A stretch of DNA of 64,000 nucleotides from an archaeon GW2011_AR15 (GCA_000830295.1 CP010425.1:576001-640000), one strand, 5' to 3'. Shown: positions 39,676 through 39,853, counted from the first letter of the stretch. A program made the numbers and translations. The notes: a model not told the origin generated them from the sequence alone.

Positions 39676-39792
39676 CATGCGCCTTGTAGCTCACATGAAT
39701 CAACTGTCCTGTCGGTTGACACCGGTGTGCGGCGTGCGCTCATTAGTGAGCTTAGCCCCACTAATAAAGAAAAAACATGCGCCTGTAGCTCA
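39676..39792 (+). mobile_element. Two-hairpin element copy E with duplication of the tRNA-Arg 5' end
   Basis: CATGCGCCT(T)GTAGCTCA at 39676-39693 and 39776-39792; shares TGTCGGTTGACACC with copy A; GTGCGGC..GCCCCAC; A-rich tail. Confidence 0.8.
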
Positions 39793-39853
39793 GCTTGGAT
39801 AGAGCGACTGCCTCCTAAGCAGTAGGTCCGGAGTTCGAATCTTCGCAGGCGCG
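39779..39853 (+). tRNA. tRNA-Arg(CCT)
   Basis: GCGCCTG/CAGGCGC, ACTGC-CTCCTAA-GCAGT, TTCGAAT. Confidence 0.95.

Follow-up and report, generated by a model that had tools for sequence, protein, structure and literature searches.

An 82-base hairpin cassette between the promoter and the tRNA-Arg(CCT) gene of archaeon GW2011_AR15, a candidate member of a family of gene-end insertions

The tRNA-Arg(CCT) gene of archaeon GW2011_AR15 is preceded by an 82-base element that lies between two copies of the gene's own 5' end, within a 64,000-nucleotide stretch of the genome (GCA_000830295.1, CP010425.1:576001-640000; the whole stretch is called the window, and positions are counted from its first base). 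Small cassettes, each accompanied by a spare copy of a gene end, occur elsewhere in the same genome, and we compare them here with the closest described systems. The bulge-helix-bulge (BHB) tRNA introns of Thermoproteales were reportedly found to transpose by Fujishima and colleagues in 2010. Like those introns, as far as they are covered in the portions of the literature at hand, the cassettes place related short sequences in different tRNA genes and at different positions, here as anticodon-loop, D-loop and T-loop introns; unlike them, most cassettes stand at 5' or 3' ends and not within the mature RNA, and the starts and stops of protein genes are occupied too. A gene-end copy of 13-55 bases and a strict outward orientation mark the cassettes, and the same portions mention neither for the Thermoproteales introns. 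In the introner-like elements of eukaryotes the target duplication supplies a splice site. They share with the cassettes a DNA insertion with target duplication that is silent from the outset, the duplicate restoring the gene or permitting splicing, but here the domain of life is another, splicing is by a protein endonuclease acting on a BHB, and the element is different.

Other systems resemble the cassettes in their repeats or in their size. A 1.9-kb insertion between direct repeats of tRNA-Thr is reported in the part of PMC3293823 available to us, and integrative elements of this pNOB8/SSV type, as described there, likewise bracket their insert with a tRNA-end direct repeat and leave a working gene intact. 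However, they measure at least 1.9 kb and carry a recombinase, whereas the cassettes are 45-150 bases long without an integrase and use dozens of targets, including the ends of coding sequences, with no shared att core. MITEs (miniature inverted-repeat transposable elements), REP and PATE are similarly small, non-coding, hairpin-forming and multi-copy, with no enzyme of their own, to judge from the sections seen of PMC11602168 and PMC3184786. Unlike in MITEs, no terminal inverted repeats were seen in the cassettes, their duplication is long and variable rather than short and fixed, they insert at gene termini in a fixed orientation, and a search of five families yielded no partner transposase. 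Short direct repeats near splice sites have been noted, with only four introns from Archaea in the part of that study available (PMC11782384), and the route by which tRNA introns arrive is called still open in the visible part of a recent preprint (bioRxiv 10.64898/2026.10.13.758758). A search of full-text literature, with subscription journals outside its coverage, found no description of such cassettes, and the family is apparently undescribed in print.

The explanation that we think probable, on balance, is that an inverted two-hairpin cassette has been inserted at tRNA-Arg(CCT), that it is transcribed as a leader and cut off by RNase P, and that cassettes of this kind spread by recombination. 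The upstream copy, CATGCGCCTTGTAGCTCA at 39676-39693, agrees with CATGCGCCTGTAGCTCA at 39776-39792 in 17 of 17 bases and has one extra T, at 39685; the two copies start 100 bases apart. The distal copy corresponds to tRNA-Arg positions -3 to +14. The proximal copy, being three leader bases and positions 1-14 of the tRNA, is part of the working gene, which is intron-free and runs from 39779 to 39853/4 (ARAGORN; Rfam tRNA, 64.7 bits). The 82 bases in between (39694-39775) terminate in the A-rich TAATAAAGAAAAAA (39762-39775), which abuts the proximal copy. The cassette thus lies wholly 5' of position 1, and the tRNA after it is uninterrupted, so that the mature RNA is not interrupted. Fourteen nucleotides, TGTCGGTTGACACC, are shared by 39710-39723 and 4487-4500, the latter 5' of the intron-bearing tRNA 4535-4663, which we read as tRNA-Trp because its anticodon loop is CTCCAG (ARAGORN labels it Arg-CCT). 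The hairpin GTGGGGCT.AGC...GCCGCAC recurs 5' of the protein gene at 59619; its enlarged loop at tRNA-Arg permits an alternative stem, ATTAGTG/CACTAAT. These observations bear out the original prediction, made from the sequence alone, which had described a 17-18 bp duplication with one extra T at a distance of 100 bp, an A-rich end immediately before the second copy, 14 nucleotides in common with a tRNA-Trp 5' element, and a second hairpin (drawn with the alternative stem) matching an element at a 'pilin' gene. The name pilin is unverified, since Pfam matched nothing for the protein of gene 59619, nor for that of gene 39871-40278.

The repeat at tRNA-Arg is more than chance. Within 300 bases upstream, 5 of the 39 tRNA genes called by ARAGORN have a copy of their own first 16 bases (at most three errors), and 18 of 39 have a copy of their last 16 bases downstream, while swapped controls (the 5' end sought downstream, the 3' end sought upstream) gave 0/39 each. 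The genome is a single contig of 1,157,790 bases, 96.8% complete with 42.5% G+C, in which the majority of tRNA genes have introns. Exact direct-repeat pairs of at least 13 nucleotides, at a spacing of 35-170, number 57 across it, compared with 6 in a first-order Markov simulation.

Promoter position and orthologous loci both indicate that the 82-base element is an insertion between promoter and gene. The TATA-like box starts at -33/-32 relative to the distal copy. Where a tRNA gene lacks a 5' cassette, the box begins 30-36 bases before tRNA +1; where a cassette is present, it begins at -30 to -34 from the upstream copy in five of six genes, and none is found at that distance before the gene. 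Because the box keeps its normal distance to the upstream copy, this copy appears to mark the original 5' end of the gene. In eight other genomes (one of the same genus; tRNA identity 75-92%), tRNA-Arg(CCT) has no upstream copy within 250 bases (0/8), the element and the A tract are both absent from all eight loci, and a TATA-like box stands directly 5' of the gene in all eight. The same copy search detected 3'-end copies downstream of the gene in two of the eight. The original prediction had named, as the outcome that would count against it, orthologous loci lacking the element and still having the A tract and both repeats; the relatives show the opposite, an empty site.

The reverse complement of the 82 bases aligns along its length with the spacers between tRNA 3' ends and their downstream copies, and from these alignments a common plan emerges: a variable, usually T-rich filler, hairpin 1 (of several interchangeable types), a linker (~YTGTTTCC), hairpin 2 with the consensus ..CAAY-loop-RTTG.., a spacer of a few bases, and the gene-end copy. 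The tRNA-Arg cassette is a mix of two subtypes, with a hairpin 1 common to the copies at Ser-GCT 3', Thr-GGT 5', Pro-GGG 5', gene 59619 and a nop10-like gene, and a hairpin 2 in the version seen at Trp 5', His 3' and Met 3'. Over 25 copies, hairpin 2 covaries, with 80.9% of cells paired as against 71.6% after shuffling (0/500 shuffles reach the observed value) and at most 44% paired in slid registers. Its frequent U-G/G-U pairs, together with folding energies summed over 21 copies (-385.8 kcal/mol sense, -345.0 kcal/mol antisense), favour the strand that runs from filler to hairpin 2. A leave-one-out profile built from the other 24 copies finds the tRNA-Arg copy on the minus strand, over hairpin 1 and the linker, with an E-value of 0.018 genome-wide, and the covariance model R1, whose training set included this copy, gives the cassette 33 bits. 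The case for placing the tRNA-Arg element in this family of gene-end hairpin cassettes is modest. Rfam found nothing at gathering score in the window except tRNAs, and E-value scans of 39640-39790 and 18660-18880 returned chance-level matches only. No inverted repeat links the two ends of 39694-39775, and none is visible in the 25-copy alignment, so termini of the MITE type were not seen. Two readings of the RNA were set aside: a K-turn in hairpin 1 (dropped by eye, as a bulged C and tandem G-A pairs seem to fit the loop better), and a guide RNA with a TnpB/Cas12-like scaffold and 3' guide, since spare copies at 3' ends have the sense orientation, those at 5' ends the antisense one, and the searches turned up no nuclease.

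R1 matches 28 places in this genome at E-values up to 0.01, 25 of which formed its training set. Read by hand, locus by locus, these fall at tRNA 3' ends (15 copies), tRNA 5' ends (four: Arg-CCT, Trp, Pro-GGG and Thr-GGT), protein-gene stops (four) and protein-gene starts (four: a DnaK-like gene, gene 59619, the nop10-like gene and one more), with a single copy inside the canonical intron of tRNA-Gly(CCC); shorter cassette types are present too. In all 27 flanking copies the order is the intact gene, the cassette in its conserved orientation, the spare copy and then the outside; the 28th match, the tRNA-Gly intron copy, is not flanking. The 5' copies are therefore mirror images of the 3' copies, and the conserved strand points away from the intact gene. 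Neighbouring copies on opposite strands rule out a replication-strand bias as the source of this orientation. Spare copies measure 13-55 bases, and their boundaries lie no more than a few bases from the end of the tRNA, from the stop codon, or from the start codon with its ribosome-binding site. Since 5' copies mirror 3' copies, the filler of the tRNA-Arg copy appears as an A-rich 'tail'; it varies among copies in length and sequence and is absent from several, for example those at G000 660498 and 863841 (G000 denotes the present genome). Hence the part of the original proposal that stands is an insertion at the 5' end of the tRNA that duplicated its target, and the A-rich tail as a retroposon-type hallmark is not supported, given the variable filler and no match to RVT_1 in the genome. 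The features of the tRNA-Arg locus and of related loci in the window are listed in Table 1.

Table 1. Window positions of the tRNA-Arg(CCT) cassette, its parts and related cassettes
Feature	Position	Strand	Remark
TATA-like box ATTTTTAAAA	39644-39653	+	ends 22 bases before 39676 and 25 before the G at 39679
Distal copy of tRNA-Arg -3 to +14	39676-39693	+	where the tRNA 5' end would sit relative to the promoter
82-base cassette	39694-39775	-	filler, hairpin 1, linker, hairpin 2; aligned with other copies as reverse complement
Hairpin 2, conserved stem (+ strand TCAAC...GTTGA)	39700-39719	-	with flanking ACACC, holds the 14 bases common with the Trp 5' cassette
Hairpin 1, subtype GTGGGGC-TAA-GC..GC-GCAC-GCCGCAC	39724-39762	-	
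A-rich stretch TAATAAAGAAAAAA	39762-39775	+	reverse complement of the T-rich filler
Proximal copy	39776-39792	+	the working gene's own bases
tRNA-Arg(CCT)	39779-39853	+	ARAGORN, Rfam
Sister 5' cassette	4455-4534	-	before tRNA 4535-4663; upstream copy GGAGGCGTAGTATAACC at 4455-4471
Trp 3' cassette	4664-4758	+	exact 16-base copy of the tRNA 3' end at 4743-4758; in-register BHB-like fold
Two tandem 3' cassettes	18668-18857	+	after tRNA 18584-18667; each followed by a tRNA 3'-end copy, the outer copy more diverged
Cassette making up most of the canonical tRNA-Gly(CCC) intron (80 bases)	41043-41119	-	
Short 5' leader of tRNA-Leu(CAA)	42305-42351	+	begins with a copy of the 5' end of the tRNA; shorter and of another type
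Two cassettes and three copies of the gene start ATGAAAAAAGCCCAGATAGA...	59421-59652	-	gene at 59619; the 'pilin-gene element' of the original prediction

We propose that the cassette was inserted between the promoter and tRNA-Arg(CCT), which would have doubled tRNA positions -3 to +14. Transcription would still start at the old place, about 39676-39679, and the precursor would carry a leader of about 100 bases, composed of the spare 5' end followed by the antisense-read cassette, which RNase P would cut at 39778/39779. As the genome has an archaeal RNase P RNA gene (98.7 bits), it is probable that the cassette is transcribed as a leader of 100 bases and then removed. With the transcription start unmoved, tRNA-Arg would be made with a structured leader, and removal of this leader by RNase P would explain why the insertion is tolerated; it is probably neutral or selfish. 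The tRNA genes of Nanoarchaeum equitans are reportedly leaderless, according to Randau and colleagues in 2008. Most tRNA genes here are similar in having the box about 30-36 bases before +1, which implies very short leaders, but, unlike in N. equitans, an RNase P RNA is found, and six tRNAs have leaders of 47-100 bases that consist of a spare 5' end and a cassette.

Alternatively, the cassette may be a proto-intron or a functional RNA: together with one repeat it would be spliced out at a BHB formed between the copies, or the leader would aid tRNA maturation, and the flanking cassettes would be introns at the gene's edge. Relatives inside tRNA genes speak for this. A BLAST search with 103 bases matched only 2 of 400 other genomes of the order, so close relatives of the tRNA-Arg copy seem rare, and both matches lie inside tRNA-Arg genes, one being the T-loop intron of a three-intron tRNA-Arg(TCT) (G061) and the other the D-loop intron of a tRNA-Arg(CCT) (G401); these genes were uncalled by ARAGORN and their exons were read by eye. 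Relative to the tRNA, both introns are oriented like the leader at tRNA-Arg(CCT). The tRNA-Gly(CCC) intron is filled by a cassette in the present genome and, in the same arrangement, in G007 (L106). Furthermore, in-register BHB-like folds (a central helix of 4 bp with both outer helices of at least 2 bp) were seen at 7 of the 25 repeat-cassette-repeat loci, compared with about 0.01 per locus when the register is wrong, and three of the seven have an outer helix of 5 bp. At the tRNA-Trp 3' locus the helix was traced by hand to the T stem, where the cassette end GGTGAG pairs with TTCA of the T loop; on this modelled pairing, 3' loci with BHB-like folds could be matured by end-processing or by splicing at T-loop position 58/59.

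At tRNA-Arg itself, a 4-bp central helix can form from the palindromes GCGC and AGCT at the sequence-restoring sites, but the inner helix has only 2-3 bp and the outer helix is absent (h = 0), and the acceptor stem would gain the extra T if splicing took place at 39693; a relaxed BHB motif is conceivable, but a splicing route for this leader is not convincing. The cassette is antisense here, so that the G-U pairs of the conserved stems turn into A-C mismatches, in keeping with the poorer antisense folding energy given above. The leader is not conserved at any of the eight orthologous loci, the presence of RNase P RNA makes splicing unnecessary, and cassettes at protein-gene starts and stops lack such a fold at seven of eight loci. 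We therefore regard a proto-intron or functional leader as unlikely.

Returning to insertion at gene ends, a more general possibility, which we put forward tentatively and hold to be less probable than not, is that the cassettes are a DNA vehicle for archaeal tRNA introns. If so, a duplicate at the gene end would keep the gene whole and the insert would become a leader or trailer, as at tRNA-Arg; where a cassette landed deeper in a tRNA loop, the copies and the cassette end would pair into a BHB, and the insert would be a D-loop, T-loop or anticodon-loop intron; and pop-in and pop-out between strains would keep the borrowed gene ends 'recoded' yet intact. The family is seen in several states: it lies silently in gene flanks beside a duplicated gene end, forms tRNA introns at three positions, sits in the P3 loop of RNase P RNA and occurs at the ends of protein genes. 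Such a series would provide concrete, testable intermediates for intron gain in archaeal tRNA and would show how small genomes with almost no spacer DNA can tolerate insertions. In addition, spare gene ends and long leaders may mislead tRNA and gene annotation in DPANN genomes.

Cassettes reach new targets, as is shown by the near identity of hairpin 1 and the linker at four unrelated tRNAs (Val, Ile, Trp and Pro-GGG) and by the different cassette types that tRNA-Arg(CCT) bears in different genomes. Of 150 other genomes of the order, 16 contain the family according to R1 (strict filters, E-values up to 1e-4). Among 22 of these matches that were inspected, five are flanked by a shared word of at least 14 bases, two of them being mirror-image copies at tRNA 5' ends (L098, L116); a third 5' copy in other genomes (L099) has a 10-base repeat. 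We envisage the cassette as a small, non-coding, two-hairpin DNA without a gene of its own, which would insert as DNA at the ends of transcription units, the gene's terminal bases then being repeated beyond the cassette. Its initial entry at a new gene would probably depend on a host-supplied or transiently supplied activity that duplicates 13-55 bases. In the single-contig genome, RVT_1, Cas1 (Cas_Cas1), Y1_Tnp and IS110 have no match and TnpB reaches only 16.9 bits, below cut-off; the transposase search covered Y1_Tnp (IS200), IS110 and TnpB. For integration of the casposon or Cas1 type, no Cas1-family integrase was found in the genome. One Phage_integrase (tyrosine recombinase) gene is present (123 bits; G000 1153920-1154396), about 538 kb from tRNA-Arg. 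No consistent microhomology was seen by eye at the junctions of cassette and repeat.

Once established, cassettes appear to pass from one diverged strain to another by homologous recombination within the repeated gene end, for example by Campbell-type entry of a cassette with the donor's gene end or by repeated pop-out and pop-in. The spare ends of protein genes are instructive in this respect. At four protein-gene 3' ends, 10 of the 14 codons that differ between working and spare copies are synonymous or stop-for-stop, and the spare copies keep the stop codon in place. By locus, such codons make up 5/9 at pth2 beyond a 21-base identical core (simulation P 0.0028), 2/2 at the 1013 kb gene end (P 0.029), 1/1 at the 660 kb gene end (P 0.23) and 2/2 at the 863 kb gene end (P 0.037). 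The peptidyl-tRNA hydrolase gene pth2 (G000:C1:168661-168830, outside the window) ends in ...DKIDGITSELKLM and its spare end, past the cassette, in ...DKIDKITGSLKLI; after the identical core, 17 of 30 bases differ while the frame and the stop are kept. In a genome of the same genus (G003), a homologous cassette follows pth2 with another sequence and an intact-looking spare C-terminus resembling an open reading frame; no spare end was seen by eye at the other 14 pth2 loci inspected. The nop10-like gene, named from a reading of its sequence (start MKHILKCQSCGKYTL...; G000:C1:1152630-1152760, outside the window), has a 5' cassette and a spare start in which both of the two differences are synonymous (by eye). 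That the differences at protein-gene spare copies are mostly synonymous suggests recombination with diverged alleles. Recoded spare ends of this sort fit recombination within the repeat between diverged alleles, and the pattern points to this rather than to neutral decay of a fresh duplicate.

Several points weigh against the favoured explanation as a whole. The relatives compared are distant (tRNA identity 75-92%, and Pth2 at most 82% identical within the genus) and are not alleles, and a truly allelic empty site was not seen among them. Family membership of the tRNA-Arg copy is weak by sequence at the leave-one-out E-value of 0.018: a first nhmmer profile missed the copy at E-values up to 10, and BLAST within the genome gave only matches of 14-23 bases with E-values of 0.46-1.6. 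We infer each of the transcription start, the leader and the RNase P cut. Moreover, the orientation rule could in part reflect selection, as T runs in a sense leader might terminate transcription, although the 3' copies are not obviously explained in this way. The recoded spare ends could equally be in use, through splicing or pop-out, and not simply be imported. Finally, no insertion enzyme was identified among the families searched, and we know of no transposase with a duplication that varies over 13-55 bases or with such strict outward orientation.

The insertion could also be the scar of an integrase-driven integrative element (a virus or plasmid) at the tRNA gene, deleted later so that attL and attR were left close together. 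Partial direct repeats of tRNA ends are a known signature of archaeal integrative elements in the part of PMC3293823 at hand, the genome does have the Phage_integrase gene described above, and recoded spare ends resemble the replacement gene ends borne by attP. Against this, at least 27 loci, at various tRNAs and at the starts and stops of protein genes, hold one small cassette and not unrelated remnants; the integrase gene is far away, the repeats of 13-55 bases have no common core, the cassette type at tRNA-Arg(CCT) differs among genomes, and no full-length element with an integrase was seen at the eight orthologous loci. We consider such a scar quite improbable.

Least probable, and about equally so, are two further accounts, neither of which we give much credence. 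A SINE-like retroposon, formed when an RNA whose 3' tail was A-rich underwent reverse transcription at a nick with variable target duplication, would account for the A-rich end next to the second repeat, for duplications of 13-55 bases within the family and for 5' leaders and introns that would yield RNA in the A-tail orientation, but we rejected it because no reverse transcriptase (RVT_1) was found in the 96.8% complete single contig, the T/A-rich filler is short, interrupted and variable, with no constant A-rich tail, the conserved stems favour the opposite strand, and allele-like recoded spare copies would be unexpected from a fresh duplication that then decayed. A local, non-mobile origin by tandem duplication or replication slippage at hairpin-forming spacer DNA would suit the repeat-cassette-repeat-cassette arrays with identical units in relatives (L011, L013, L028) and the tRNA-Ser(TGA) copy that is followed by the outer part of a second cassette, but not the near-identical hairpin 1 and linker at four unrelated tRNAs, the same family in other genomes of the order, or the empty orthologous sites.

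All 20 sequencing runs were available as contigs, not reads; the labels of those containing the stretch name groundwater or soil metagenomes, and no RNA run is listed among them. One contig, from a sample of another study (X5), covers 39300-39803 with zero differences, the element being identical. No joint across the element, as an empty allele would give, is reported in the run contigs. Contigs of X8 and X10, from different studies, end at 39678/39679, within one base of the start of the distal copy, while X5 reads through; the ends could be due to low depth or to a population branch. An X10 contig of a related organism has a TATA-like box, 20 bases, and CAT plus the tRNA. This resembles an empty site, but the 3 differences in 42 bases mark a different strain.

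Cassette sequence was also noted outside gene flanks. The P3 loop of the genome's own RNase P RNA (G000:C1:561673-562045, outside the window; L034 1471-1843) contains an insert of about 83 bases, where the Rfam consensus has a loop of 5, and this insert ends in the cassette linker and hairpin 2 in sense orientation (leave-one-out profile E-value 1.6e-4; R1 18.5 bits). In the 11 relatives shown, the P3 loop has 10-35 bases, and R1 matches one of 18 RNase P loci, that of the own genome only. In tRNA-Gly(CCC), window 41016-41166, the intron cassette is antisense and its A run can pair with CCUUUU of hairpin 2, which would produce the inner helix of the splicing motif. Directly 5' of this tRNA lies an Ogg-HhH 8-oxoguanine DNA glycosylase gene (E-value 1e-59; window 40337-41011), an ordinary context. 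The introns of tRNA Trp, Leu-CAA, Cys, Ser and Leu-TAG (window 4570-4625, 42390-42425 and others) contain a hairpin of the form GATGAG..GNNA..CGATGA, which by eye looks like a box C/D or K-turn-type module. In one other genome (G077), R1 gave five matches (L092, L107, L111, L114, L117). Three of these (L092, L107 and L117) are near-identical cassettes between repeats containing GCATAAAGC on separate contigs, in two cases at the end of the contig, which suggests a recently expanded array or repeat.

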